Numbered from the stretch's first letter, positions 7,675-63,828 are shown. The stretch: DNA of 64,000 bases from Halodesulfurarchaeum sp. (GCA_034520565.1 JAXHNL010000002.1:96001-160000), one strand, 5' to 3'. Numbers and translations are program-made. The notes: generated from the letters alone by a model not told the origin.

Positions 7675-8358
7675 TTATTCCCGGAAGTGCTTCTCGTCGG
7701 GGACGCCCTCCGTGCCCTCGTCGACACGATCGCACATTGCGTCGATTTCTTCGTCCGTGGGGGCCGCCACGTCGATCCTCTCACGAACGTCGGTGATCGC
7801 TTCGTCGGTCATGGCCACGGCCGCCCGATGGAACGGGGCCTCGGCGGCCGCGTTCTCGACCCGCCGACGGAACGCCGGAAGCCAATCGAGGTGGTCCGCG
7901 ACGAACTGCCGGTGTTGGGCCTCGGTCCCGTTCTCGACCAGGATCGAGGCGTACTCCAGCAGGAGCGCGAGGTGATCGGGCATGTAGGAAGCCGGGGGCG
8001 AGATGCCGATCGTCTCGAAGCGCTCGCGCATGTCAGCGGCTTGCGGGCCGTTCAGAAGGCCGTCGCTTCCCGGTCCGTCGTACCATTCCTTGTACGCCGA
8101 CTCGATGGCGGGGGCGTACGGCTGCTCGAAGGCCTCGAACAGCGAGATGTACTCGTTGTCGAAGGCCGCCGCGGTCTCCGGAACGTCCTCGACGTCAGGA
8201 CGAGGGACTAACTCGAAGTCCAGCTCCGCTTCGGTGGCGTCGATCTCCTCGTCGAGACGCCCCTCCAGTACGTCCTCGTGGAACGTTTCGTCGGGATGTT
8301 TGAAACACTCGGATAGCACCGCGTACAGCCTCGAAAGTTTGGGTTCGGATTCTGGCAT
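7675..8358 (-). CDS. TorD/DmsD family molybdoenzyme maturation chaperone
   Basis: PYAPAIESAY and PDHLALLLEY motifs; last gene of a molybdoenzyme operon. Confidence 0.9.
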   Translation of the reverse strand: MPESEPKLSRLYAVLSECFKHPDETFHEDVLEGRLDEEIDATEAELDFELVPRPDVEDVPETAAAFDNEYISLFEAFEQPYAPAIESAYKEWYDGPGSDGLLNGPQAADMRERFETIGISPPASYMPDHLALLLEYASILVENGTEAQHRQFVADHLDWLPAFRRRVENAAAEAPFHRAAVAMTDEAITDVRERIDVAAPTDEEIDAMCDRVDEGTEGVPDEKHFRE

Positions 8359-50039: not shown

Positions 50040-51482
50040 ATGAGGGGGAAACGGCCGATCGGGGCCATCAAACGCGCACTCGACACCGTCTTCCGCACCG
50101 AGGAGGACCTCGAGATGCTGACTGGGTCGATCGGAAAGCCGCTGTTCTTCCTCTCCCTGCCCCTGGTGCTAACCAACCTTCTCCAGAGCGCCTACAACAT
50201 TGCCGACACCTTCTGGTTGGGCCAGTACGGGACGAACGAACTCGCGGCGATCAGTTTCGCCTGGCCGCCACTGTTCCTGCTAATGATGCTGGGGATGGGG
50301 GTCGCCGTAGCCGGGAGCGTGCTCGTCGCTCAATACACGGGTGCGGGGAAGGAACGGACCGCCGAATACTCGGCCGCACAGACGATCACCTTTGCCGTGC
50401 TCGCCTCCGTCGTCATCGGCTCGATCGGCTACCTGATGGCCGGACCGTTGATCGGCGTTCTCGGGGCGGCGCCCGAGGTACATCCGCTCGCGACGGGGTA
50501 TCTCCAGGTCGTCTCGATCGGGTACGTGTTCATGTTCGGGTTCATGGTCTTCAACTCGGTCATGCGGGGGTACGGTGACACCGTTACGCCCATGCTGGTC
50601 ATGGCCGCGACGGTGGTTTTGAACATCGTCCTTGACCCGTTCCCGATCTTCGGGTGGGGACCGTTTCCCGAACTGGGAATCCTCGGTGCGGCCTACGCGA
50701 CGATCTTCTCCCGGGCGGTGGGACTCGCGATCGGGATGTACGTCATGCTTTATTCGAGCCGTGGCATCACGATCCACCTCCGGGATACCATCCCCGACCT
50801 GGCCTTTTTCCGCCGGATCGTCCGAATCGGTGCTCCGGCCGCCGTCGAGGGGGTGAGCCGAGCCGTCTCACAGAACCTCCTCATGATCGTCGTCGGCTGG
50901 TTCGCGACCCCGATCGTGGCGGGATTCGGGATCGCAACGCGGGTGTTCTCGATCGTCTTCACGCTGGGCGTCGCCGTCGACCGGGGCGTCGAAACGATGT
51001 CCGGGCAGAACCTTGGGGCGGAGAAACCCGACAGAGCCGGGTCCGCCGCCCGCATCGCTGCGATCGGGCTGTTCGTCTTCCTGTCGGGAATCGGTGCGGT
51101 CCTCTTCGTCGGCGCTGTGCCGATCTCTGCCCTGTTCACCCCCGATCAGGCCGTCATCGACGCCTCCGCCGAATTCATGCGGTGGGTCGCCCCAACCCTC
51201 GGATTCATCGGACTCATGCGGGCCTATTCGGGCAGTTTGCGAGGAGCCGGGAAAACGCTGACCGTGGCGGCGATCGCCGTCCTGATGATGGGCGTCACGC
51301 GGTTTCCCCTCGCCTGGATTGCCGCCTCCATCATGGGCGAAACGGGTATCTGGCTCGCCTTCGGCGCCTCGAACGTCGTCGGCGGTCTCGTCGCCTACCT
51401 CTGGTATCAGCGGGGGACGTGGCGGAACGTCGACCTGACCGAGCAGGAACCCGACCTTCCGGTAGAGGAGGTTCCGGAGTAA
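50040..51482 (+). CDS. MATE family efflux transporter
   Basis: QSAYNIADTFWLG, RGYGDT.TPM, NIVLDP, GQNLGA. Confidence 0.92.
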   Translation: MRGKRPIGAIKRALDTVFRTEEDLEMLTGSIGKPLFFLSLPLVLTNLLQSAYNIADTFWLGQYGTNELAAISFAWPPLFLLMMLGMGVAVAGSVLVAQYTGAGKERTAEYSAAQTITFAVLASVVIGSIGYLMAGPLIGVLGAAPEVHPLATGYLQVVSIGYVFMFGFMVFNSVMRGYGDTVTPMLVMAATVVLNIVLDPFPIFGWGPFPELGILGAAYATIFSRAVGLAIGMYVMLYSSRGITIHLRDTIPDLAFFRRIVRIGAPAAVEGVSRAVSQNLLMIVVGWFATPIVAGFGIATRVFSIVFTLGVAVDRGVETMSGQNLGAEKPDRAGSAARIAAIGLFVFLSGIGAVLFVGAVPISALFTPDQAVIDASAEFMRWVAPTLGFIGLMRAYSGSLRGAGKTLTVAAIAVLMMGVTRFPLAWIAASIMGETGIWLAFGASNVVGGLVAYLWYQRGTWRNVDLTEQEPDLPVEEVPE

Positions 51483-51631: not shown

Positions 51632-53557
51632 ATGGCTCACGAAGTGACGGTGTCTTTCGATCCCTGGGAGGTGGCGGTTGCCGTCGAGGCCGGCGAGACG
51701 ATTCTCGACGCGGCCGAAGCGGGAAACGTCGGAATCGAGGCTCTCTGTGGCGGGAACGGGTTGTGTGGGACCTGTGCGGTACAGGTCGACGGAGCGGATC
51801 CCCCACTCTCCCCGCTCGATCCGGACGAGGAAGACGTCCTCGACGCCGAAGCCATCGCGGACGGTTACCGACTCGGCTGTCGAGCGGCCGTCGAGGGGGA
51901 TCTCTCGGTCTTCGTCCCCGCGGCCTCACGGAGCGAGGGCGAGATCGTGATGACGGAGGGCCAGGAGATCGACTTCGAACACGATCCGGCCATCCGCCGG
52001 TACCAGCTCACGGTTCCCGCGCCGACACTCGAAGAGACACTCCCCGATCGCGAACGGCTCATCGACGGGCTAGCGGCGGAGTACGACCTCGCGATCACCG
52101 ACGTCGACATGGAAGCGCTCACCACGCTCCCGTCGACGATCCGGGAAGGCGAAACGGACAACGAATTTCGAACAACCGCGACCGTGTACAGTGGCGAAGA
52201 AATTCTGGGCGTCGATCCGGGTCGGCCCGGTCACGCCTACGGCCTTGGGATCGACATCGGGACGACCACCCTCGCGATCTATTTGTTGGATCTCCAGTCC
52301 GGCGAGCAGGTGGCCGTGGACTCCAAGCTCAACCCCCAGAGTACCCACGGCGGGGACATCATCAGCCGGGTCCAGTATGCGAGCCAGGAACCCGGCGGGA
52401 AGGCCGAACTTCAGGAGGAGATCCTCGGAGCGATAAACGACAGCATCGCCGAGGTTGCCTCGACGGCCGACATCGACCCGACGGACATCTACGAGGCCGT
52501 CTTCGTCGGCAATACCGCCATGCATCACCTCTTTTTGGGGATCGACGCCGGTCCCGTCGCGGCGAGTCCGTACGTCCCCGGCGCCCAGTCGATTCTCCGA
52601 ACGACGGCGAGAGAACTCGACCTCGACGTGAACCCCTCCGCGTCGGTCTCCTGGCTGCCGATCATCGGCGGCTGGGTGGGGCCGGATTTCGTGGCCGACC
52701 TGCTCGTCGCCGGCGTCCTCGACCGGGAGGAGACCGTCCTTGCCATCGACATCGGGACGAACGGCGAGATCGCCGTTTCGGGGCCCGAAAAAACATACGT
52801 CGCCTCCGCACCGGCAGGCCCGGCACTCGAGGGGGCAGAGATCACTCACGGCGTGCGAGCCAAACCGGGCGCGATCGAGACGGTCAGCCTGGAGCCGGAG
52901 ACCTGGGAGCCCGAATTGGGGATCATTGGTGACGAGCCGCCGATGGGGATCTGTGGCTCGGGGATTATTGACGTCGTGGCCCAGCTCTTTCTCGTCGGGG
53001 CGATCAACCGTCGGGGCCGGCTGATCGACCCGGAGGAGGGGCAGGGTCGGATCCGCGAGACCGAGGATGGCGATCGGGAGTTCGTGCTCGTAGAAGCAGC
53101 CGAGGCAGACATCGACGAGGATATCGTCGTCTCCCAGGAAGATATCCGGGACATCCAGAACGCGAAGGCCGCGATCCAGACCGGCTCTCACGTCCTGCTC
53201 GAGGAGGCCGGTATCGAGTCCGTCGACACGCTCGTCATGGCTGGCGGCTTTGGCAATTACATCGATCCCGAGTCGGCGAAACTCTTGGGCCTCTATCCGG
53301 AGGTCGACGTCGACGACGTCGAGTTCCTCGGGAACGCGGCGGGGTACGGGGCGATGTACGCCCTCCTGAACGAGGGAGCCCGCGAGGAGGCCGAACACAT
53401 CGTCTCGGCGGTCGAATACGTCGAACTCGCCGCCTGGGAGGGCTTTCACGACCTCTTCATGGGCGCGATGTACCTGCCCCATCGGGAGTTCGATCGGTAT
53501 CCCGGGGTGAAATCGAAAGTCGAAGCGGCCCGTGGGGGTCCGATCGACGAGCTCTGA
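51632..53557 (+). CDS. ATP-dependent reductive activator of corrinoid proteins (RACo/DUF4445, ASKHA) with an N-terminal 2Fe-2S domain
   Basis: CGGNGLCGTC...RLGC, DIGTTT, GNTAMHH, DIGTNGE, AGPALEG, GICGSG, AGGFG, GNAA. Confidence 0.93.
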   Translation: MAHEVTVSFDPWEVAVAVEAGETILDAAEAGNVGIEALCGGNGLCGTCAVQVDGADPPLSPLDPDEEDVLDAEAIADGYRLGCRAAVEGDLSVFVPAASRSEGEIVMTEGQEIDFEHDPAIRRYQLTVPAPTLEETLPDRERLIDGLAAEYDLAITDVDMEALTTLPSTIREGETDNEFRTTATVYSGEEILGVDPGRPGHAYGLGIDIGTTTLAIYLLDLQSGEQVAVDSKLNPQSTHGGDIISRVQYASQEPGGKAELQEEILGAINDSIAEVASTADIDPTDIYEAVFVGNTAMHHLFLGIDAGPVAASPYVPGAQSILRTTARELDLDVNPSASVSWLPIIGGWVGPDFVADLLVAGVLDREETVLAIDIGTNGEIAVSGPEKTYVASAPAGPALEGAEITHGVRAKPGAIETVSLEPETWEPELGIIGDEPPMGICGSGIIDVVAQLFLVGAINRRGRLIDPEEGQGRIRETEDGDREFVLVEAAEADIDEDIVVSQEDIRDIQNAKAAIQTGSHVLLEEAGIESVDTLVMAGGFGNYIDPESAKLLGLYPEVDVDDVEFLGNAAGYGAMYALLNEGAREEAEHIVSAVEYVELAAWEGFHDLFMGAMYLPHREFDRYPGVKSKVEAARGGPIDEL

Positions 53558-53662
53558 GGCTACAAAAATATAAGTGCTCTTCGAGCGAAATTAACTCGTA
53601 CAGAATCCGAGAAGTGCTTGGAACTCCCGCCGGAAAGACACCGAACACACACGACAGAGACC

Positions 53663-54952
53663 ATGACAGACGAATTCGACGTAACACTGGAGAACTGGGA
53701 ACAGGGGAAGGGAATCGACTTCGAGGACGAGGCGGCTCGCGAGGCCTATCAGGCGCGGGCGGGCCGGCTGGCCACGGCGATCCGCGGGGGCACCCCCGAC
53801 CGCATTCCGACGGTCTTGAGCGCGACGTTTTACCCGGTCTTCCACGCCGGGATCACCCCCGAAACCGCGATGAACGATGCGGCGAAGCTCGCTGCGGCAC
53901 TCGAGGAGACTGTCACCGACCTCGAGCCGGACGGCCAGCAAACCACGGCCGCACTGTTGCCCTCCGCGAAGATGCTCGACATGTTGGACTACAAGCTCTA
54001 CGCGTGGCCAGGCGACGGTGCCTCGCCCACAACTGGATACCAGGCGTTGGAAGACGACTACATGGGAACCGACGATTACGAGCACTTCGTTCGTGATCCA
54101 ACCGACTTCTGGCTGCGGGAGTACATCCCCGAAATCGTCGGCGCGCTCGACGGGTTCAGGCAGTTGCCCAAATTCACCGACCTCGTCGAGATTCCGAACA
54201 TCCACTTCATGGCGATGATGTTCGGACTCCCGGAGGTCCAGGAGTCCCTGGAGACGCTGATGGAGGCCGGCGAAGAGGCCCTTCGATGGCAGGAGATCGT
54301 CGAAGGACGAGCCCAGAACATCATCGAACAGGGGTACCCCCGCTCATTCGGTGGCTTCTCCAAAGCACCCTACGACGTGATCGCCGACACGCTCCGGGGG
54401 ACCCAGGGGGCGTCGATGGACCTCAAGCGCAAACCCGATGAGCTGCTCGAGGCGACCGAATCGCTGATTCCGACGATGATCGACATGGGGATCCGATCCG
54501 CCCACGGGGCAGGCAATCCGCTCGTTTTCATCCCGCTTCACAAGGGGGCCGACGGCTTCATGTCGGAAGCGGAGTTCGAGGACTTTTACTGGGGGCCACT
54601 TCGACAGGTCATCGGCGGTCTCACCGATGTGGGCCTCGTCCCCTGGCTCTTCGCGGAGGGTGGATACAACAACCGCCTCGACGCCATCTCGGACCAGCCC
54701 GACGGGAACATCGTCTGGCAGTTCGACCGGACCGACATGGTCGAAGCCAAAAAGACCCTCGAGGGGCAGGCCGCAATCGCCGGGAACGTCCACAGTTCGT
54801 TGCTCAACACCGAGACGCCCGAAGACGTCACCGAGTACTGCGAGGAACTGATCGCGGACGTCGGCCCCGATGGGTTCATTCTCGCACCGGGCGTGGCTCT
54901 CGACGAAGCCGAACCCGAGAACGTCCGGGCGATGATCGATTCGGTGAAATAA
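53663..54952 (+). CDS. UROD-fold corrinoid methyltransferase 1 (MtvB/MtoB-like O-demethylase MT1)
   Basis: PDRIP, WPGDG, APYD..ADTLRGT, FIPLHKGADGFMS, FAEG, IAGNV. Confidence 0.8.
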   Translation: MTDEFDVTLENWEQGKGIDFEDEAAREAYQARAGRLATAIRGGTPDRIPTVLSATFYPVFHAGITPETAMNDAAKLAAALEETVTDLEPDGQQTTAALLPSAKMLDMLDYKLYAWPGDGASPTTGYQALEDDYMGTDDYEHFVRDPTDFWLREYIPEIVGALDGFRQLPKFTDLVEIPNIHFMAMMFGLPEVQESLETLMEAGEEALRWQEIVEGRAQNIIEQGYPRSFGGFSKAPYDVIADTLRGTQGASMDLKRKPDELLEATESLIPTMIDMGIRSAHGAGNPLVFIPLHKGADGFMSEAEFEDFYWGPLRQVIGGLTDVGLVPWLFAEGGYNNRLDAISDQPDGNIVWQFDRTDMVEAKKTLEGQAAIAGNVHSSLLNTETPEDVTEYCEELIADVGPDGFILAPGVALDEAEPENVRAMIDSVK

Positions 54953-55137
54953 GGGGCGCCCACGCTTCTTTAGTCCTGTCGAGTTCACGCGGGGGACGGA
55001 AACACTCCGTGCCATCACGGACGTTTTCCCAAAAGCTGAATTGATAAAGCGAAAGTAAAACTGCGTATATCGGAGTTTAGCGGGCTCGAGGGCCCAAAAT
55101 TATAATATCATTGTATTCCAATATATAACGGAGTTCG

Positions 55138-55803
55138 ATGTCACAAGAATTCGTAAACGCACTGGCCGATCTCGAGGAGGAGCGAGCGATCGAAATAGCC
55201 GAAGCACGACTCGAGGCGGGTGAGGACCCCCTCGACGTGCTCGACGATCTGAAAAAGGGAATGGGCATCGTCGGTGATCGGTACGCCGACGACGAGTACT
55301 TCATTCCCGACCTGATGTACGCCGGGGAGATCATCGAACAGATCTCCGAGCTGCTCCAGGACCAAATGCCCGAACAGGAGGATGAGTCGATCGGAACCGT
55401 CGTCCTCGGGACCGTCAAGGAAGACATCCACGACATCGGCAAGGATCTCGTCTACTTCATGTTCGACCTCAACGGCTTCAACGTCGTCGACCTCGGCGTC
55501 GACGTCCCGATTCAGGACTTCGTCGACGCCGTCGAGGAGCACGATCCCGAAATCGTCGCGCTCAGTGGCTTCCTCACCGCCGCCTTCGACTCGATGAAGG
55601 AGACCGTCGAGGCACTCGAGGAAGCAGGACTCGTCGAGGAGTTCGACGAGGACGGGATCCGCGATGGCACGAAGGTCATGATCGGCGGGGGCCAGATTAC
55701 AGACGACGTCCGGAATTACGCCCGGGCCGATGGCTTCGAAACCGATGCGCCAGCCGGGGTTACGCTCGCGAAGCAATGGACGGAAGCGAAAATGGAGGCC
55801 TGA
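55138..55803 (+). CDS. Corrinoid (B12-binding) protein 1
   Basis: Cap domain GM.IVG.RY...EYFIPDL; GTVKEDIHDIGK (DxHxxG); DLGVDV; SGFLT; KVMIGGG. Confidence 0.93.
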   Translation: MSQEFVNALADLEEERAIEIAEARLEAGEDPLDVLDDLKKGMGIVGDRYADDEYFIPDLMYAGEIIEQISELLQDQMPEQEDESIGTVVLGTVKEDIHDIGKDLVYFMFDLNGFNVVDLGVDVPIQDFVDAVEEHDPEIVALSGFLTAAFDSMKETVEALEEAGLVEEFDEDGIRDGTKVMIGGGQITDDVRNYARADGFETDAPAGVTLAKQWTEAKMEA

Positions 55804-55805
55804 TC

Positions 55806-57104
55806 ATGGCAGCACAAACTCGATCCGGACCGACCCTCGAATCGTGGATCGAGGGCGAGGAAATCGAATTCGTGGACGAAAAAGCAAAAGCCGACTATCA
55901 GAAGCGGGCCAAACGGTTCGCCGACGCGATTCGTGGCGACCAGCCCGACCGGGTCCCGGTCAATCTGCTCAGTACGTTTTACCCGGTCCTGCACGCCGGG
56001 CACACGCCGGCCGAGGCGATGAACGACGCCGAAATCCTCCAGGATTCGTTGCTCACCTTCGTCGACGACCTCGATCCCGACGTGTTTCCGTGGGCGCTCC
56101 CGACGGTCCCATCGGCAGCGGCGCTGGAAACCGTTGAGTACCAGGGCTTCGACTGGCCGGGGGACGGCTCCGCCCCGGAAACGGTCTATCAGGCAAAAGA
56201 GCAGGATTACATGACCGTCGAGGATTACGACGCCTTCCTCAAAGACCCGTCAGACTACCTCCTCCGGGGCTACCTTCCGGAGACGTTCGGGACACTCGGG
56301 GGGATGGCTCAGTTCCCAAAACCCATCAACCTCACCTTCGGGATCGCCGGCGTCCATCCGTTCCTCCTGCCGTTCGGCCTCCCGCCAGTTCGTGAAGCAC
56401 TCGAAACGTTACTCGAGGCCGGTGAGGAAGCGATGGCCTGGCAGCAAGCCGTTGGAAGCACGGTCGCGGAGATCCAGGCCAGTGGCTATCCCCAGAGCTT
56501 CGGTGGCATTACGCTCGCCCCCTACGACATGCTTGGAGACATGCTGCGAGGGACCCGGGGCATCATGAGTGACCTCAAACGTCGGCCGGATCAGTTGCTC
56601 GAGGCGATCGAGCGGATCACTCCGCTGGCCATCGAAAACGGCATCGTCTCGGCCAACGTGGTGAACAACCCGCTGGTGTTCATCCCGCTTCACAAGGGGG
56701 CCGACGGGTTCATGTCTCCAGCGGAGTTCGAAGAGTTCTACTGGCCGTCGCTGCGAGCGGTCATCGAGGCCCTCCTCGACTTGGATCTCGTGCCGTGGCT
56801 CTTTGCCGAGGGGTGCTACGAGACCCGGCTGGAGACGATCAGTGATCTGCCCGAGGGGGATATGGTCTGGCACTTCCAGGACATCGACATGGGCCGGGCG
56901 AAGGACCTCCTGGGCGATCAGGCGTGTATCGCAGGCAACGTGCCGACGTCGCTCCTGAACACCCGAGAACCCGAAGCCGTCACGGAATACTGCGAGGACC
57001 TGCTTTCGACGGTCGGGACCGAGGGGTTCGTCCTGGCCCCCGGCGTCGGCCTCGACGAGGCAAAGCCCGAGAACGTCGAAGCGATGTTCCAGGCCGTCAG
57101 ATAA
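55806..57104 (+). CDS. UROD-fold corrinoid methyltransferase 2
   Basis: Same motifs as 53663-54952; starts 2 nt after the corrinoid gene stop. Confidence 0.8.
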   Translation: MAAQTRSGPTLESWIEGEEIEFVDEKAKADYQKRAKRFADAIRGDQPDRVPVNLLSTFYPVLHAGHTPAEAMNDAEILQDSLLTFVDDLDPDVFPWALPTVPSAAALETVEYQGFDWPGDGSAPETVYQAKEQDYMTVEDYDAFLKDPSDYLLRGYLPETFGTLGGMAQFPKPINLTFGIAGVHPFLLPFGLPPVREALETLLEAGEEAMAWQQAVGSTVAEIQASGYPQSFGGITLAPYDMLGDMLRGTRGIMSDLKRRPDQLLEAIERITPLAIENGIVSANVVNNPLVFIPLHKGADGFMSPAEFEEFYWPSLRAVIEALLDLDLVPWLFAEGCYETRLETISDLPEGDMVWHFQDIDMGRAKDLLGDQACIAGNVPTSLLNTREPEAVTEYCEDLLSTVGTEGFVLAPGVGLDEAKPENVEAMFQAVR

Positions 57105-57174
57105 TCTTTAGGTCCCTTGGAGTTCCACTTTTTGGAGGACCATACCGGGAAATTAAAAATCGAGAGTCGGTTCG

Positions 57175-58504
57175 TTACTCCTGGCGGGAGAGTCGCAACC
57201 CGTAGACTGCAGCCAGGAACGATGCTACAAACATCGCCGCTGCCAACAGCAATGCTTCGCCATACCCGCCAAAGAAGTCCGCCATGTACCCGAAGAGAAC
57301 AGGCCCGATGGCAAGCCCGGCCCCCACGGAAAACGCGTTGATGTAACTCATCACCATACCGACGTTCTTGCGTCCGAAGAGGGCCGGAACGGCAGCAAAG
57401 TGAAGGATCGGTTGCCCGGGCGTGATGAGAAACAGGATCACGCCGACGACGTAGACCATCAGCAGATTCGAATACGTGAAGTAGAACACCACAAAAATGA
57501 TTGCAGCTAACAGGTAATTTAACCTGAGTGCTCGCGCACGGATCCCCGAGTCTGTCCATCGCCTCCCCCCAGCCCAGCGCAGCAACAATGCCGACGACAC
57601 CGGACATCGCGAAGAAGGTGGGGACAGTGTTACTCGCAATGGTGTCCGGATTGTGGCCGGTTTGACTGAGACCGTCGATCAGGATTGTTGCAATGTTCTG
57701 CAGGAATCCCATGTAGGCAGCGGCAGCGAAAAACATCGCGACGAAGAGTACCCAGAACTTCGCGGTCCTGGCAGCTTCGCCGATGGTGTACTCGCCCCGA
57801 TCGATGTCCGACTCGGGTTCGGCCTCCGGTTCTTCGTCCGATTCGTCCGAGGTTTCGACTTCGAGTTTTCCCGATTCGATCTCCTCCTGCGTCGGGTTTC
57901 GCCACAGCGCGAACCCGAGGACGGCCGTCGCCACGCCACCGGTGGCACCCATCGCGAGAAACACGTCCGCCCCGAATCCGAAAAAGGTGATCAGGAACGT
58001 CGCGAACGGAGCCAGCAGTAATCGTCCGAGGGCTCCACCGAGATTCCCGATTGCCATCGCCCGACCGAGACGGTCACCCCGAAACCATCGGGAAACGGTC
58101 GGGTTCGCCGCCCCCTGTGCCATCCCGGCACCGACGCCGACGATAAAACTCCCCGCGTACCAGGACCACTTTGCCGTCGCCCAATCGTCGGTCGCGAACA
58201 TCACGCCGATGAGCACGAATCCGGCAAAGAACAGTACCGCCGCAAGCCCCAGTGGAACCTTCGGATTATCCATCCAATCGAGAATCGTCCCGGCGATCGG
58301 GGGTCCGATAACCATCGTCCCCACACTGAGTGCAGAGGCACCGATCGCTATTGGCCCGATCACGTCGATGCTAAAGGAGTCTTGAATGAACGGAAACCAA
58401 ATCGACCAGATGCCGGACACTGTGAGCAGTGCTCGAAAAGCTGTTCCTGAGATGGGGTAGTACCATCTCTTATCCGCACCAACACCCTTGTTGAACAATC
58501 CCAT
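57175..58504 (-). CDS. MFS transporter (OFA/OxlT-like), with a 1-nt frameshift at ~57535-57548
   Basis: SRWF...G.A, EAARTAKFW, MDRLG. The last TM helices (VPALFGRKNVG...GYMADFFGGY) are in a second frame. Confidence 0.82.
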
Positions 58505-58725
58505 TGTCCATTAATTTCCTTTAATTTCCTTAGATATATAGTTTATCCTCACCATAAATTGGGTATCTGAAGGTGTATTTCCGGCATAAACCGTGATTAT
58601 CGGATCAAAGATCGACATTTACTCGATCCAAAACTACACTATCTAATTCCGATTTGTGCTATTTTCAACAAATTAATAATGGAAATGCGGGAGATATTGA
58701 AATGATTTTCAGTCGAGAGCTAAAG

Positions 58726-59312
58726 ATGGCACATTTCGGTCAGGACGGTGTCGGCCCTGATAGAAGGTGGTTTTGCCCGATTTCCGGACGGACGTTCAGG
58801 TTCTTCCTTGCGTCCCTCGGAATATGGTCCCTCTTTTTCCCCATACATTATGGACGAATTTAGTCTCGAAGTAGTCACTCCGGTTGCTATCGACTCGTCA
58901 ACAGCGGGTGTCGGAGTAATGGTTCTGGGACCGCCAGTTTCTGAGACAGTTCTCGATAAAATAAAAGCCCCAAAGTTCCTCCTTAGAGCTTGCTGCGGTT
59001 GTCTTCGGCGGAGACGCCCTCCTATTGGCGTTACTGTTGAATGTAGACACCTAGACAACGGCAAGTGGTACTGGTACCTCCTCCTGGGTATCGGTGCCGT
59101 GATGTTCCTCTTCTTCGGTGGTGAACCAGTGGTCAACGTCTCCACGGTTCCACATCTCTTCGCCAGTCCAAACATTGAAATGGAAATGGTTTCCTCAACG
59201 CGTTCTCGGTAGGCACGAGAATTGTGCTCGGTCCAACGGTGATGGCCTATCTATCAGACTTTACCGGATCATACATGTGGCCGCTCGTTTTGGCGCTCCT
59301 ATTACGGTTTGA
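58726..59312 (+). pseudogene. Decayed, internally deleted paralog of the adjacent MFS transporter
   Basis: Fragments GVGPDRRWFCPISG, GPPVSETVLD, KWYWY, VPHLF and LNAFSVG...LGP...SDFTGSY match the N- and C-termini of 57175-58504 across several frames. Confidence 0.75.
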
Positions 59313-59454
59313 ATCGACTAGATTGCCCGGTATGGGATATTATGCGAGCCGTTGAAAATCCGCTCAGTTTTTTTCGTCATATGAAATAGCAGAAGATTAC
59401 ATCCCGGCAATAATTGTCGATAGAACTAAGAGGAGATGAATGTAAGCAAGTAAC

Positions 59455-60768
59455 ATGGGTCAGACTTACGACCTGAAGAACCATCCGTCAGGAGGCGAAT
59501 TGTGGCAAAAATGGGAATCAGGCAGCGATATTGATTTTGTTGACGACGAAGCTCAAGAAACTTACCAACGTCGAGCAACACGGATCCGTAAAGCGATCGA
59601 ACTCAAGGAACCCGACAGGATTCCGGTCCGCTTGGGGGCCGGCTTTCTCGCCGGCCACCTAGCCGACGTGACCTTCGAGGAGATGATGTATGACGCGGAA
59701 AAGGCGAAAAAGGCCATGCGACAGTATAAGGCCGAATTCAAACCGGATCTGAACCCGGTCACGCCACAACCCAGCGGGGAAATGCTGGACACGCTTGGAG
59801 TCGAGTTCTATGACTGGCCGGGGGATGGTCTCAAAGAAAACGTGGGGTATCAAGCGCTCGAAGACGAATACCTTCCCCCCGAGGAGTACGACGAGTTCAT
59901 TGCCGATGTCGAAGGGTGGATGTTGAAGAAATACATGCCGCGGGTGTTTTCCAATCTCGAGGGACTACAGCACCTCCCACAGTTTCTCAGTACGATAGAA
60001 CTCCCCTTCCTCGGCCCCACGTTTTCTGCGTTCGCTAATCCCGATCTTCAGGAAGCGCTTCAAACGTTGATGGAAGCAGGAGAGCAAGGGGCTGCATGGG
60101 GTCAAGAAGTCGGTTCAATAGCTGCAGAAGCAAACGCAGAGGGATTCCCATCAGGTCTGGGAGGGTTCGGAAAGGCCCCCTTCGACATCATTGGAGACAC
60201 GATAAGAGGTACCAGGCCAACGATGGTTGATATGCGTAAACGTCCGGAAAAACTCAAGGAGGCTACGGAAGCTCTCGTCCCTCACGCAATCAAACAGGCC
60301 GTCGGAGGGCCTCTCGCTTCAGGCACACCAATGAACATCTTCGTCCTCCACAAAGGCGACGACTCGTTCATGTCGAAGGAGGATTTCAAGGAGTTCTACT
60401 GGCCGACACTCAAGAAAGTCGTCGATGCGGTCATCGATCGTGGAATCGTTCCCTGGATGTTCGCGGAGGGACGGTATAATGAACGATTAGAAATCGTTGC
60501 AAACGATCATCCCGACGGTCCGATTGTTTGGTACTTCGATAAGACCGATATGAGGCGGGCCAAGGAAATTCTCGGTGACAAAGCGGCCATCGCTGGCAAT
60601 GTCCCCACCGATATCATCAAAACTGGGGATCCAGAGGATGTCGAAGCCTACTGTAAAGATCTTATCGAAGACGTGGGCCCGGAGGGCTTCATTCTCACGC
60701 CCGGTGTGACAGTTTATCGGGCCCCACCCGAAAACCTTCACGCGATCATCGATTCCGTTAAGGAGTAA
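59455..60768 (+). CDS. UROD-fold corrinoid methyltransferase 3
   Basis: PDRIPV, YDWPGDG, KAPFD..GDTIRGT, LHKGDDSFMS, IAGNVP. Confidence 0.8.
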   Translation: MGQTYDLKNHPSGGELWQKWESGSDIDFVDDEAQETYQRRATRIRKAIELKEPDRIPVRLGAGFLAGHLADVTFEEMMYDAEKAKKAMRQYKAEFKPDLNPVTPQPSGEMLDTLGVEFYDWPGDGLKENVGYQALEDEYLPPEEYDEFIADVEGWMLKKYMPRVFSNLEGLQHLPQFLSTIELPFLGPTFSAFANPDLQEALQTLMEAGEQGAAWGQEVGSIAAEANAEGFPSGLGGFGKAPFDIIGDTIRGTRPTMVDMRKRPEKLKEATEALVPHAIKQAVGGPLASGTPMNIFVLHKGDDSFMSKEDFKEFYWPTLKKVVDAVIDRGIVPWMFAEGRYNERLEIVANDHPDGPIVWYFDKTDMRRAKEILGDKAAIAGNVPTDIIKTGDPEDVEAYCKDLIEDVGPEGFILTPGVTVYRAPPENLHAIIDSVKE

Positions 60769-60989
60769 ATCTACGCACTCGGAGGGGGTTTTTCGATATC
60801 GTGAGGGAGGAAGCCGAAAGTAATCCCCTAATTGATTGCCTTGTTTTATCCTGTCCGTGGTTACTAAACGTCAAAGCTTACCCTCGAATACTGTTCGCTG
60901 ATTTCCCCAATTCCGAGCCCATCATCAGTGGGATCGGGCAGTCAAAGAACGGACTACTCCCAAAGTCGGATAGCGATCTTTGACCGTCT

Positions 60990-62004
60990 TGGCCCCGTCG
61001 ATATCCCGGCAACGTCGGCGATATTCTTGGCTACGAAGTGTACGACTGGCCCGGAAATGGCCTCACAGCAGACATGGGTTTCCAGACGAACGAAGGCGAG
61101 TACATGAAAGCCGACGAATACGACGAGCTCATTGCGGACCCCATCCGGTACATGCTGACGAAGTGGTATCTCCGGGCGTTCGACGAGCTCGAGGGACTCG
61201 CCCAGTGGCCGCTTACGACGTACGCGACCGAGTTGACCCTGTTGCCGTTCGAGACGACCGTGTTCGGCACCGAACCGATGCAGCAGGCCCACGACGCCCT
61301 CAAAGAGGCCATCGAGGCGACCCTCCAGTGGAATCAGACCGTCGGGGCCGTTCAGATCAAGGGGAACATGCAGAGATACCCGTCGACGGCGGGTGGGATC
61401 GGAAAGGCGCCCTTCGACGTGCTCGGTGACACCCTTCGGGGGACCCGCAACGTCATGATCGACATGCGAAAGCGTCCGGAGGAGGTAAAGGCCACGGCAG
61501 AAGCGCTCGTTCCAGAAATGATCCAGATGGCCATCGAGGGGCCAAAGCAATCCGGCCTGCCCTTCACGATGTTCGTCCTGCACAAGGGGGCTGACAGCTT
61601 CATGTCCGATGCGGACTGCCGCGAGTTCTACTGGCCGACGCTCAAGATGGTGATGCAGGCGGTCATGGACGAGGGCATCGTCCCGTGGATGTTCGCCGAG
61701 GGAAGTTACGAGGGCCGTCTGGACCTGATCGCGGAAGACCAGCCCGACGGCAAAGTCGTCTGGCACTTCGATCAGACCGACATGGCCCTGGCCAAGGAGA
61801 AACTCGGCGACGAAGCCACGATCGCGGGTAACGTTCCGACTGGCTACATCAAGACCGGCACGCCGGGAAAAAGTGCGGACCTACTGCGAAGACCTCATCG
61901 AGAGCGCCGGACCAGAGGAGTTTTTGCTCACGCCCGGCGCGACGGTCTATCGCGGTCCGGAGGAGAACCTTCAGGCCATCATCGACACGGCGAAGAACGC
62001 GTAA
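60990..62004 (+). pseudogene. UROD-fold methyltransferase 4, 5'-truncated and frameshifted at ~61865
   Basis: Homology starts at YPGNVGDILGYEVYDWPG, just after an in-frame TGA at 60981. The C-terminus EKVRTYCEDLIE...DTAKNA* is in another frame. Confidence 0.75.
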
Positions 62005-62082
62005 ATCGGTCACGGACAGTTTTCTGATTGAACCTCAAGAAATCCGACACCGTCGAGGTCGGGAAAGGCCGAGGCGGAGTCG

Positions 62083-62931
62083 CTACCTGGACCGGATGTG
62101 ACCGAGGAAGCGTTTTGCGTAATCGTCACGCCCCATCACCAGATCGGCGATCAGTACCGTCTCTCTGGTCTCCCCGGGGTTCAATATCGGGACGTTCAGT
62201 CCCGCCTCGATGGCCATCGCGAGGTACAGGTTGTTGATCCGGTCCCGTTCCGGCATCTCGTAGGAAATGTTGCTCAGGCCCAGCGTGATGTTGTTCCCGA
62301 ACTCCTCCCGAATGGTTTCCATCGCGGTGAGGACGTCCAGCCCGGCATCGGAATCCGTAGAGAGGGGATAGGCCAGTGGGTCCAGGATGACGTCCTCGCG
62401 ATCGACGCCGTACTCGTCGGCCTGTTCGAGGAGCGCTTCGGCGAGTTCGATCCGTCCCTCGGCCGATCCCGGCGGGCCGGACTCGTCCATGGTGAGACCG
62501 ACGACGGCAGTGTCGTACTCCGCGACCAGCGGGAAGATCGTCTCGAGTGAGGGGCCCTCCATGCTGACGGAGTTCACGATCGGTCGGCCCGGCACGACCT
62601 CAAGGGCCGCCTCCAGCGCGTCGGCGTCGTCGTAGTTCGTGTCGATGACGATCGGCACGTCGACTGCGTCGGCGACGGTCTCGACGGCCATCGGCAGGAC
62701 CGTCTCCTTGTCGATGCCGTCGGCGTCCACGTTCACGTCGATCAGGTCGGCTCCGTTCTCGACCTGTTCGAGGGCCAGTTCCCGGACTGGCTCCATGTCC
62801 TCATTCTGCAGGGCCACGGCGAGATCGGACTCCGGTCGGGGATTGATCCGCTCGCCGATGATCCTGACCTGTTCCGTCCGGTCGATCCGAACGGTCTCCT
62901 CCGTCCCTTCGACTTCAGTCACTACTGTCAT
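62083..62931 (-). CDS. Methyltetrahydrofolate:corrinoid methyltransferase (AcsE/MtvA/MetH pterin-binding domain)
   Basis: IIGERIN, GADLIDVN, PIVIDT, IVNSVS, ILDPL, GLSNIS; lacks the FolP STRPG and SRK motifs. Confidence 0.88.
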   Translation of the reverse strand: MTVVTEVEGTEETVRIDRTEQVRIIGERINPRPESDLAVALQNEDMEPVRELALEQVENGADLIDVNVDADGIDKETVLPMAVETVADAVDVPIVIDTNYDDADALEAALEVVPGRPIVNSVSMEGPSLETIFPLVAEYDTAVVGLTMDESGPPGSAEGRIELAEALLEQADEYGVDREDVILDPLAYPLSTDSDAGLDVLTAMETIREEFGNNITLGLSNISYEMPERDRINNLYLAMAIEAGLNVPILNPGETRETVLIADLVMGRDDYAKRFLGHIRSR

Positions 62932-63171
62932 GCTACATGTCGAAACCACTCAACCAGATTCTATAAGGATTGTGTTATCCCTGATCCGACCACGGGATAA
63001 TTTGGCAAAGTCAGCGCCAATCGGTTAGTGCCAATGTAAGTCCCAGTCAACCCGATAACGAACAATTTCAGTTGTGTAAGAACAATCAAATCTGAATAAT
63101 TCGGGCCATATCGGCCCTCTACCCCGGAATCTTTAAGGAATAACCAATCCTCATTTTAACCTGGATCACCG

Positions 63172-63828
63172 ATGTCCGATGAATTCGTACAAGCGTTAGC
63201 CGATCTCGAAGAGGACCGAGCGATTGATATGGCCAAAGAGCGCCTCGAGTCGGGTGAAGACCCCCTCGATGTCCTCGATGACTTGAAAAAGGGGATGGGC
63301 ATCGTCGGCGATCGGTACGCCGACGACGAGTACTTCATTCCCGACCTGATGTACGCCGGGGACATCATCGAACAGATTTCCGAACTCCTGCAAGAGGAAA
63401 TGCCTGATCAAGACGACGAGAACATCGGAACGGTTGTCCTCGGCACCGTCAAGGACGACATCCACGACATCGGCAAGGATCTCGTCTACTTCATGTTCGA
63501 CCTCAACGGCTTCAACGTCGTCGACCTCGGCGTCGACGTCCCGATTCAGGACTTCGTCGACGCCGTCGAGGAGCACGATCCCGAAATCATCGCGCTCAGC
63601 GGCTTTCTCACCGCCGCCTTCGATTCGATGAAAGAGACCGTCGAAGCCCTCGAGGAAGCCGGACTCGTCGAGGAGTTCGACGAGGACGGCGTTCGTGACG
63701 GCACGAAGGTCATGATCGGCGGCGGGCAGATCACCGACGACGTCCGGAATTATGCCCGCGCCGACGGGTTCGAAACGGACGCTCCGAGTGGTGTGACACG
63801 AGCCAAAGACTGGCTCGGCGTCGCCTGA
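63172..63828 (+). CDS. Corrinoid (B12-binding) protein 2
   Basis: Near-identical to 55138-55803; DDIHDIG. Confidence 0.93.
   Translation: MSDEFVQALADLEEDRAIDMAKERLESGEDPLDVLDDLKKGMGIVGDRYADDEYFIPDLMYAGDIIEQISELLQEEMPDQDDENIGTVVLGTVKDDIHDIGKDLVYFMFDLNGFNVVDLGVDVPIQDFVDAVEEHDPEIIALSGFLTAAFDSMKETVEALEEAGLVEEFDEDGVRDGTKVMIGGGQITDDVRNYARADGFETDAPSGVTRAKDWLGVA

Follow-up and report, generated by a model that had tools for sequence, protein, structure and literature searches.

A horizontally acquired, bacterial-type corrinoid methyltransferase system in Halodesulfurarchaeum

Why should a sulfur-respiring haloarchaeon carry a cluster of genes for corrinoid-dependent methyl transfer, and from which compounds would it take the methyl groups? 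The question is raised by a stretch of 64,000 nucleotides (nt) from Halodesulfurarchaeum sp. (G000:C2:96001-160000, hereafter the window; plain positions are counted from its first letter, and those prefixed C2 run along the contig). A preliminary description of this DNA had read the locus as an O-demethylase-like system that may serve the demethylation of methoxylated aromatics. Our analysis identifies a horizontally acquired, bacterial-type four-component corrinoid methyltransferase system. Its general mechanism is very probably tetrahydrofolate (THF)-linked methyl stripping that feeds respiration; for aryl methyl ethers as the methyl donors, with sulfur or dimethyl sulfoxide (DMSO) respiration as the sink, the chances appear about even. 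The kind of system is known; its novelty lies in the lineage of the host, in the connection to THF within an archaeon, and in the uncharacterized clade to which the first methyltransferases (MT1) belong.

An open reading frame (ORF) listing combined with Pfam and NCBIfam profile scans of the window gave the following inventory, in which CP stands for corrinoid protein, MT2 for the second methyltransferase, and MFS for the major facilitator superfamily.

51632..53557, plus strand: RACo/AcsV-like activase with four Pfam domains; the ORF opens at TTG 51572
53618..54952, plus strand: MT1-A, UroD-fold methyltransferase of the PLHKGAD clade, ORF of 444 amino acids (aa) (PF01208)
55138..55803, plus strand: CP1, corrinoid protein (methyl carrier) (PF02607 and PF02310, motif DIHDIG)
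55806..57104, plus strand: MT1-B, UroD-fold methyltransferase of the PLHKGAD clade, 432 aa (PF01208)
57175..58504, minus strand: MFS-1, transporter, frameshifted as assembled (PF07690)
58717..59361, plus strand: MFS-2, remnant, a dead copy of the MFS-1 type (tblastn)
59455..60768, plus strand: MT1-C, methyltransferase of the PLHKGAD clade, 437 aa, motif LHKGDD (PF01208)
61008..61998, plus strand: MT1-D, pseudogene most like MT1-C (tblastn)
62083..62949, minus strand: MT2, MeTr-like pterin-binding TIM barrel methyltransferase (PF00809)
63172..63828, plus strand: CP2, corrinoid protein (B12-binding_2 and B12-binding domains, motif DIHDIG)
L001 1082-4078 (G000:C2:160082-163078), past the window end: MFS-3 (frameshifted as assembled), DUF1638, and IclR

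All four catalytic components (activase, MT1, CP, and MT2) were found at full length. This agrees with the RACo activator, the four UroD-fold genes (three intact and one a pseudogene), the two DxHxxG corrinoid proteins, and the pterin-binding methyltransferase named in the preliminary description. The stop codon of CP1 is separated from the start of MT1-B by a gap of 2 nt. The components of what had been described as one complete cluster between 51632 and 63828 do lie there, but MFS-3, DUF1638, and IclR are found past the window end, the cluster extending ~3 kb further before unrelated genes begin. A MATE efflux transporter gene (50040-51482; PF01554; TIGR00797, 245 bits) directly upstream of the activase was left out of the cluster because no match to it was found beside the cluster in four related genomes at an E value of <1e-8. 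Over window positions 58000-62000, which hold the MFS-2 remnant, MT1-C, and MT1-D, the GC content is 0.51 to 0.57, compared with ~0.63 for the genome, and this segment may be a later insertion or exchange within the cluster.

Is the arrangement more than a chance assembly of genes? Four other haloarchaeal genomes share the set (activase, MT1-A, CP, MT1-B, MFS, MT1-C, MT2, CP, DUF1638, and IclR) in a rearranged order, and because of this synteny the arrangement cannot be ascribed to chance. The MFS genes are intact in these related genomes, one of which has lost MT1-C save for a remnant of 50 residues. The named homologues are from Halodesulfurarchaeum formicicum, H. sp. HSR-GB, Halalkaliarchaeum desulfuricum, and H. 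sp. AArc-CO. A survey of Halobacteria, as the preliminary description had proposed, found the cluster in 5 of 401 sampled genomes: an MT1-B query matched the present genome, all three others of the same genus, and one from another family, with no match in the remaining 396. Ratios of nonsynonymous to synonymous substitution rates (dN/dS) against the nearest genome are 0.07 to 0.17 for the activase, MT1-A, MT1-B, both CPs, and MT2 (activase, 0.105; MT1-B, 0.078; MT2, 0.173), at dS values of 1.0 to 1.6 that are near saturation. The cluster is thus under purifying selection.

The activase carries Fer2, RACo_linker, Raco_middle, and RACo_C_ter domains (PF00111, PF17650, PF17651, and PF14574), all full length and in the order 2Fe-2S ferredoxin, linker, middle domain, and ASKHA ATPase. 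It scores 442 bits against the AcsV model NF040756, under the cut-off of 800, and is 73 to 78% identical to its orthologues within the genus. The activases of relatives align only from residue 20-21, that is, from position 51632 and not from TTG 51572. Both CPs combine a four-helix cap (PF02607) with a Rossmann B12 domain (PF02310) and the DxHxxG motif; CP1 scores 147 bits against TIGR02370, which is below the cut-off. CP1 and CP2 are 91% identical to each other but only 81 to 83% identical to either CP of the nearest relative, which suggests gene conversion between the two genes. The cluster has one MT2 candidate only, which belongs to PF00809 (E value of 3e-26) and not to PF02007 and scores 248.5 bits with NF005719, just under the cut-off of 259. 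Its matches in the PDB are MeTr (2yci; E value of 4e-41) and 4o0q/4o1e (E value of 9e-40), the latter of which we take to be the MT2 of the Desulfitobacterium hafniense O-demethylase, and we infer that its methyl acceptor is THF.

What, then, are the MT1 proteins? MT1-A and MT1-B are 56% identical, MT1-C is 42 to 45% identical to either of them, and orthologues of MT1-A in related genomes share 75 to 85% of its residues. PF01208 matches their C-terminal half only (E values of 1.8e-16 for MT1-A, 5.7e-20 for MT1-B, and 9e-22 for MT1-C). Databases name their homologues "uroporphyrinogen decarboxylase family protein," and an ESM Atlas search returned only generic "uroporphyrinogen decarboxylase" clusters. 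The hemE model TIGR01464 gives 23.5, 31.4, and 26.8 bits for MT1-A, -B, and -C, compared with a cut-off of 303, and the MtaA, MtbA, and MtaA/CmuA-family models give 18 to 39 bits, compared with cut-offs of 235 to 600. The AlphaFold2 model of MT1-B (pLDDT, 89.4) has the UroD/MtaA fold; a Foldseek search with it, against a PDB library that runs to April 2026 and lacks CdmB, returned UROD and MtaA only, at TM scores of 0.55 to 0.59 (4ay7, 0.59). By sequence, the best solved relative of MT1-B is CdmB (104 bits; E value of 5e-29; three separate aligned stretches), followed at a distance by plant UROD (21 bits), with MtaA not seen at an E value of ≤1. Residues D92, Q129, Y141, D241, D245, R248, D256, H296, W313, and E335 are conserved in four groups: the haloarchaeal MT1s, the rest of the PLHKGAD proteins, the MtvB type, and MtoB. 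The MT1 alignment has no invariant Cys, and position 335 is Glu in the MT1s and Cys in the MtaA-like outgroup; MtaA and MtbA presumably bind Zn through a His/Cys/Cys site.

The same genome also encodes, on the minus strand at C2:41587-42690, an MtaA-like UroD protein separate from the cluster; it matches PF01208 over the full length (174 bits), contains a Zn-type motif (HPCG), and is only 22 to 28% identical to the MT1s of the cluster. Its neighbor is a corrinoid protein of its own (C2:42729-43379, minus strand; 34% identical to CP1). This pair (C2:41587-43379), ~53 to 54 kb upstream of the window start, is a third corrinoid methyl-transfer module of the genome and is of the thiol/coenzyme M-like type, in an organism without coenzyme M.

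The ancestry of the MT1s was examined in two trees (IQ-TREE quick mode, LG+C20 PMSF, SH-aLRT support only). The first had 83 rows drawn from 95 full-length homologues in named loci, leaving out the duplicate L019 and ORFs of <400 or >520 aa and capping each class at four rows, a limit from which L020, L032, and L035 were exempt. The second had 70 rows, a subset lacking G010 and three Mto near-duplicates, to which Moorellaceae rows were added. CdmB, OdmB, VdmB, and the published MtvB are absent from both, and locus-derived MtoB and Moorellaceae MtvB-type homologues served as stand-ins. The MtoB rows came from clusters with the published Mto order (CP, MT1, MFS, MtrH, and activase) in 401 sampled genomes of the phylum, and the first 45 residues of two of the MtoB-clade proteins equal MtoB1 and MtoB2 as printed in the supplement of the CdmB paper (PMC13222342).

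In the first tree, all 15 haloarchaeal rows formed one clade (support, 99) with subclades A, B, and C, each of which contained both genera; MT1-A fell in subclade A and MT1-C in subclade C together with orthologues of two other genomes. The sisters of the haloarchaeal clade were a Frackibacter protein and proteins from metagenome-assembled genomes labeled Bipolaricaulota and Thermotogae (support, 85). In the second tree, the haloarchaeal clade (12 rows; support, 99) was contained in a PLHKGAD clade of 46 rows (support, 99), and MtaA-like proteins were the outgroup, separated with a support of 97. Together, the trees point to one acquisition, followed by a triplication before the two genera split, and place the MT1s in neither characterized O-demethylase clade.

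The PLHKGAD clade reaches far beyond haloarchaea. In a pattern scan with one genome per species, F[IM]PLHKGAD or a second motif occurred in at least 612 stretches, 599 of which were confirmed as relatives; most were from Chloroflexota, Desulfobacterota, Bathyarchaeia, Promethearchaeota, and Bacillota. When metagenomes were searched with a Bathyarchaeia member, all 8000 scored candidates had E values of ≤1e-30; the name of Bathyarchaeum tardum, a cultured methoxydotroph, did not occur among the 120 matches listed, which has no bearing either way. PLHKGAD proteins are among the most abundant uncharacterized MT1 families of anoxic sediments, with members in Chloroflexota, Desulfobacterota, Bathyarchaeia, Asgard archaea, and haloarchaea. 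The LHKG motif is absent from all reference sequences in file 5 of the CdmB paper (BLASTp-queries sheet, 63 rows; PMC13222342). Of 23 genomes in the Neomoorella stamsii family, 17 had matches, which were of two kinds. The Moorellaceae PLHKGAD type (~440 aa) is 42 to 46% identical to haloarchaeal MT1 over its full length, and the MtvB type (~390 aa), which has the MtvB N terminus and the motif LH[KR]GAYPFLS, is 31 to 34% identical overall and 41 to 45% identical over the C-terminal half (E value of ~1e-43). The two genes are often 1 to 3 kb apart.

We also surveyed the neighborhoods of 76 non-haloarchaeal loci of the MT1 clade by tblastn on fetched flanks of up to 8 kb on each side. A CP was present in 70, a pterin MT2 in 30, an activase in 16, and MtrH in 2. 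Given that a CP lies within these flanks in 70 of the 76 loci, CP and MT1, a textbook pair, form the conserved core. One archaeal locus of the same phylum, L121 (G718:C2:115001-135000), has an MT1 that is 38% identical to MT1-B, with the motif LHKGI and a CP directly upstream, and carries MFS, MtrH, and MtaA-like genes within ~6 kb. It sits on a long branch in the trees and looks like an intermediate, tetrahydromethanopterin (H4MPT)-linked relative.

How does the cluster compare with characterized systems? The preliminary description had likened it to the Mtv, Odm, and Mto systems, and the combination of activase, MT1, CP, MT2, and MFS bears this out, but the MT1 clade, the type of MT2, and the broken MFS genes set it apart. 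MtvABC of Moorella thermoacetica likewise has a long-type UroD-fold MT1 (MtvB) and a CP and passes the methyl group to THF. By score, the MtvB type is the nearest characterized type to the haloarchaeal MT1s, with which it shares the LH[KR]GA..F.S motif and the conserved Asp/Arg/His/Glu set. However, the haloarchaeal MT1s are ~40 residues longer at the N terminus and form a separate clade, and the MtvB type has Y, Y, and G in place of PLHKGAD residues D300, R341, and N378. The haloarchaeal cluster also carries its own activase, whereas the M. thermoacetica Mtv system is described as having three components (PMC10477458).

The Mto systems of Methermicoccus shengliensis and Archaeoglobus fulgidus share with the haloarchaeal cluster a RACo-type activase, a CP directly upstream of MT1, and an MFS gene inside, and in A. 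fulgidus the Mto methyl groups are reported to feed sulfate respiration, analogous to sulfur respiration here. MtoB differs in having a long-branched clade of its own and a two-residue deletion after the conserved His, and it is 33 to 35% identical to the haloarchaeal MT1s over the C-terminal half (E value of ~1e-31), so that the MtvB type is closer than either MtoB or CdmB.

CdmBCA of Acetobacterium dehalogenans (CdmB, PDB 9rui) is likewise described with a UroD-fold MT1 with N-terminal extensions, a CP, and a THF-type MT2 (PMC13222342). CdmB is closer to MtoB (214 bits) than to the haloarchaeal MT1s and has Trp, Tyr, Asn, and Gln where these have H296, K297, D300, and E335. The CdmB paper groups homologues at ≥40% identity, and in the available parts of its account of cdmBCA no transporter is mentioned (PMC13222342); with their score of 104 bits and different residues at 296, 297, 300, and 335, the haloarchaeal MT1s do not belong to the CdmB type. 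The OdmABCD and Vdm systems of A. dehalogenans and Desulfitobacterium hafniense also combine an activating enzyme, MT1, CP, and pterin-type MT2, but OdmB and VdmB are short UroD proteins of ~330 aa that, compared by eye, do not have the PLH motif region. MtaA, MtbA, and MtsA likewise have the UroD fold and a corrinoid-protein partner, but their Zn-ligand Cys is absent from the haloarchaeal MT1s, which score far below the cut-offs of these families.

Where would the methyl groups go? The genes for formyl-THF ligase (FTHFS; C2:182430-184112), MTHFR (C2:191734-192366), and FolD (C2:193050-193532) are located 22 to 33 kb downstream of the window; a second activase and one more corrinoid protein are encoded at C2 188-201 kb. 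According to the genus paper, formate and methyl-THF are connected by a THF-dependent route, and several formate dehydrogenases are present; a corrinoid demethylase is not discussed in its available parts (PMC5437934). In the mechanism we favor, MT1-A, -B, and -C would each move a methyl group from a small methylated substrate, most likely an aryl methyl ether such as vanillate, syringate, or a methoxyphenol, to the Co(I) form of a shared CP1/CP2 pool. The MeTr-like MT2 would then transfer the methyl group to THF, and the RACo-type activase would use ATP and a low-potential electron to rescue accidental Co(II). The MFS carriers would import the substrate and/or export the phenol, accompanied by the IclR regulator and DUF1638. 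The resulting CH3-THF could be oxidized by the neighboring MTHFR, FolD, and formyl-THF ligase together with formate dehydrogenases, with sulfur, thiosulfate, or DMSO respiration taking up the electrons. In this scheme we infer which class of substrate is used, which way the methyl groups move, and that respiration is the sink.

The choice of aryl methyl ethers rests on indirect evidence of three sorts: the shared MFS type, the His/Glu pair, and the adjacency of PLHKGAD-type and MtvB-type genes in Moorellaceae. Intact MFS-1 orthologues are 34% identical over their full length (~448 aa) to the MFS between MtoB and MtoA in the Mto cluster (L119:9508-10770; E value of 2e-76), although the local copy is frameshifted, and this Mto carrier is reported to be up-regulated on 2-methoxyphenol in A. 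fulgidus. The retained H296/E335 pair would fit ether cleavage; CdmB, whose substrate needs no leaving-group protonation, has Trp and Gln at these positions.

Several observations weigh against methoxylated aromatics. The second tree places the MtvB-type clade (8 rows; support, 100) and the MtoB clade (7 rows; support, 100) outside the PLHKGAD clade, with none of the haloarchaeal rows in either; these two clades join on long branches with a support of 85, a grouping flagged by the program as a possible artifact. Thus, the UroD-fold phylogeny proposed in the preliminary description, with stand-ins for MtvB, does set the MT1s apart from MtaA-like proteins but also leaves them outside both O-demethylase clades, so that the substrate cannot be read from the phylogeny and has to be argued from other evidence instead of assigned by family. 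We know of no characterized member of the PLHKGAD clade. The MtoA protein is MtrH-like (PF02007) and H4MPT-linked, in contrast to the THF-linked PF00809 MT2 found here; MtrH was present in all five H4MPT-type clusters examined (the Mto-type L119, L120, L122, and L123, and L121). All three MFS genes are broken as assembled. Hints of aromatic metabolism around PLHKGAD genes are sparse: a 4-hydroxybenzoyl-CoA-reductase-like Mo enzyme in one of nine Pfam-scanned loci, an arylsulfotransferase in another of the nine, and Mo-enzyme homologues in 3 of the 76 tblastn loci. We considered this neighborhood signal for aromatic catabolism (2 of 9 and 3 of 76 loci) too sparse to use. In salt pans, lignin monomers with methoxy groups do not suggest themselves as a major substrate.

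The published proteome of H. formicicum adds both support for a working system and a further difficulty for this substrate. Table S11 of the genus paper lists HTSR_1704-1716 in a cluster-like order: TsaA, "ferredoxin," UROD, hypothetical, Na+/proline symporter, MFS, and "methionine synthase-like" for HTSR_1704-1710, and B12-binding, UROD, oxalate/formate antiporter, hypothetical, IclR, and SMC for HTSR_1711-1716 (PMC5437934). Spectral counts in sulfur-, thiosulfate-, and DMSO-respiring cells (column order assumed from the legend) are 10/21/4 for 1705, 12/28/5 for 1706, 11/25/2 for 1710, 13/13/6 for 1711, and 5/21/6 for 1712 (PMC5437934). Matched by order and annotation, not by sequence, these five proteins correspond to the activase, MT1, MT2, CP, and MT1, and by gene order the soluble parts of the cluster thus appear to be expressed in H. 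formicicum. The matching transporters, in contrast, have counts of 0 to 2, and the cells were grown on formate and yeast extract with no methoxy-aromatics added (PMC5437934). Since the soluble proteins were made under these conditions, they may serve another donor. The species description names formate and H2 as sole electron donors (PMC5437934). Among the public sequencing runs listed, no RNA run with this stretch was found.

The alternative that survives best keeps the same machinery and the same direction of methyl flow but assigns it a different donor: methyl halides, dimethyl sulfide (DMS) or methanethiol, methanol, or another O-, S-, or N-methyl compound of brines or yeast extract. We regard it as a serious contender, albeit less probable than aryl methyl ethers. 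Besides the lack of a characterized clade member and the synthesis of the proteins without added methoxy-aromatics, DMS is a product of the organism's own DMSO respiration, and the great abundance of the clade in anoxic metagenomes would fit a very common substrate. Moreover, CdmB shows that O-demethylase relatives can switch to haloalkanes (PMC13222342). That enzyme, however, has replaced the very His296/Glu335 pair that the haloarchaeal MT1s retain in common with MtvB and MtoB, and the MtvB type is their nearest characterized relative by score. Likewise, donors of the thiol kind are disfavored by the absence of a Zn-thiolate site of the MtaA/MtsA type, and gases by the MFS carriers that accompany the MT1s and would be needless for such substrates, one of them of the type found in the Mto methoxydotrophy cluster. 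On balance, the machinery for demethylation proposed in the preliminary description stands, whereas its substrate is a reasoned guess for MT1s that lie outside the MtvB and MtoB clades.

The transporters raise the question of whether the cluster in the present genome still works. The MFS genes of the preliminary description are indeed present, but none is intact as assembled, and the OFA label given to them falls well below the cut-offs (TIGR00890, 55 bits compared with 375; SfMCT, 68 bits compared with 320). In MFS-1, the alignment to intact homologues leaves frame -3 at 57539 and resumes in frame -1 at 57534, with the break near 57535 inside a GGGG run. For MFS-2, tblastn recovers no more than the stretches matching residues 7-137 and 378-473 of an intact homologue, in frames 2 and 3; this remnant, with an internal deletion and frame changes, lies in DNA with a GC content of 0.51. 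MFS-3 changes frame near L001 1645-1655. A Bipolaricaulota locus with an MT1 of the sister group carries an MFS that shares 54% identity with this last type, which recurs in only 2 of the 76 non-haloarchaeal loci. MT1-D is without its first ~98 residues and is frameshifted near 61855-61865 (tblastn, frame 1 over 61008-61871 for homologue residues 99-387 and frame 2 over 61840-61995). One related genome has a sodium:solute symporter gene (L015 9419-10918; PF00474) between MT1-B and MFS-3. A symporter gene of this superfamily also follows the Mto cluster in L119 but is only 24% identical to the L015 symporter, a type that is absent from the cluster of the present genome.

The single-base frameshifts of MFS-1, MFS-3, and MT1-D all lie in short homopolymer runs. 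Of the words sampled from the stretch, 95% occur in one salt-pan metagenome run, possibly the source sample. The MT1-D frameshift is covered by a metagenome contig with zero differences, and both MFS frameshift sites sit exactly in two narrow gaps between the contigs listed (L157 1013-1038, window ~57513-57538, and 8138-8163, G000:C2 ~160638-160663). The coincidence of gaps and frameshifts looks nonrandom; population heterogeneity, slippage-prone tracts, and assembly error are possible causes. We therefore treat the decay of MT1-D and MFS-2 as real, MT1-D because it is spanned by metagenome contigs, and the frameshifts of MFS-1 and MFS-3 as unverified because their sites fall in contig gaps.

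That the cluster is a decaying, nonworking relic in the present genome, a reading not exclusive of the others, would be in line with the truncated and confirmedly frameshifted MT1-D, the fragmentary MFS-2, the one-base frameshifts in each of MFS-1 and MFS-3, and the low GC content across 58 to 62 kb. We consider it unlikely. Apart from MT1-D, every catalytic and corrinoid-protein gene of the cluster is intact, with dN/dS ratios that show purifying selection, and the MFS frameshifts, in homopolymers at contig gaps, may be assembly errors or population variants, the former of which would fit a genome completeness of 80.7% although the genome is in 2 contigs. In addition, uncharged methoxyphenols may not need a carrier.

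Still less probable is a methylating direction, in which CH3-THF would pass its methyl group via CP and MT1 to sulfide or a thiol, giving methanethiol, or to a phenol, for detoxification or biosynthesis. Corrinoid methyl transfers are reversible in principle, as textbooks state. When cultures of the genus reduce sulfur, they are reported to form traces of methanethiol, and the proteins were present in formate-grown cells, in which formate carbon can reach CH3-THF (PMC5437934). Methyl-corrinoid plus sulfide could be the source of the methanethiol. Three MT1 paralogues with importers and a dedicated regulator, however, fit a catabolic, multisubstrate design, the cluster lies beside C1-oxidation and formate dehydrogenase genes, and the MT1s have no thiol-activating Zn site. 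Finally, the idea that the UroD-fold genes are HemE or coenzyme M-type MT2 proteins misread as MT1s, which the preliminary description had itself raised and which their database names and predicted fold might suggest, is rejected, given the curated models far below cut-off, PF01208 on the C-terminal half only, CdmB as the best solved relative, the split from MtaA-like proteins in the tree, Glu at the Zn-ligand position, the pairing with corrinoid proteins, and, to our knowledge, the lack of a coenzyme M pathway in haloarchaea.

The preliminary description was aware of no such metabolism characterized in Halobacteria, and in the openly searchable full-text literature, subscription-only papers being outside the search, we found no description of such a system in haloarchaea. 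Anaerobic sulfur-respiring haloarchaea have been described on formate or H2 plus yeast extract. Few electron donors are known to work at salt saturation; a working system would extend their number by methylated compounds and would bring a methoxydotrophy-like metabolism into the class Halobacteria. A bolder and rather doubtful extension is that the PLHKGAD clade acts on a donor used by no known corrinoid system, or on ethers plus other donors, and that Halodesulfurarchaeum and Halalkaliarchaeum have an undescribed lifestyle in which the oxidation of methyl groups to CO2 via THF is coupled to sulfur, thiosulfate, or DMSO respiration at salt saturation, so that the "formate/H2-only lithoheterotrophs" would be methylotrophs.

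The locus is also a clear case of a multigene bacterial catabolic module that was taken up, triplicated, and maintained in an archaeal lineage. Both Halodesulfurarchaeum and Halalkaliarchaeum are cultured, and the proteome appears to hold the proteins; there is therefore a direct experimental handle on the PLHKGAD clade, and, if the bolder reading is true, these cultured genera would become the first tractable hosts for learning the function of the clade.

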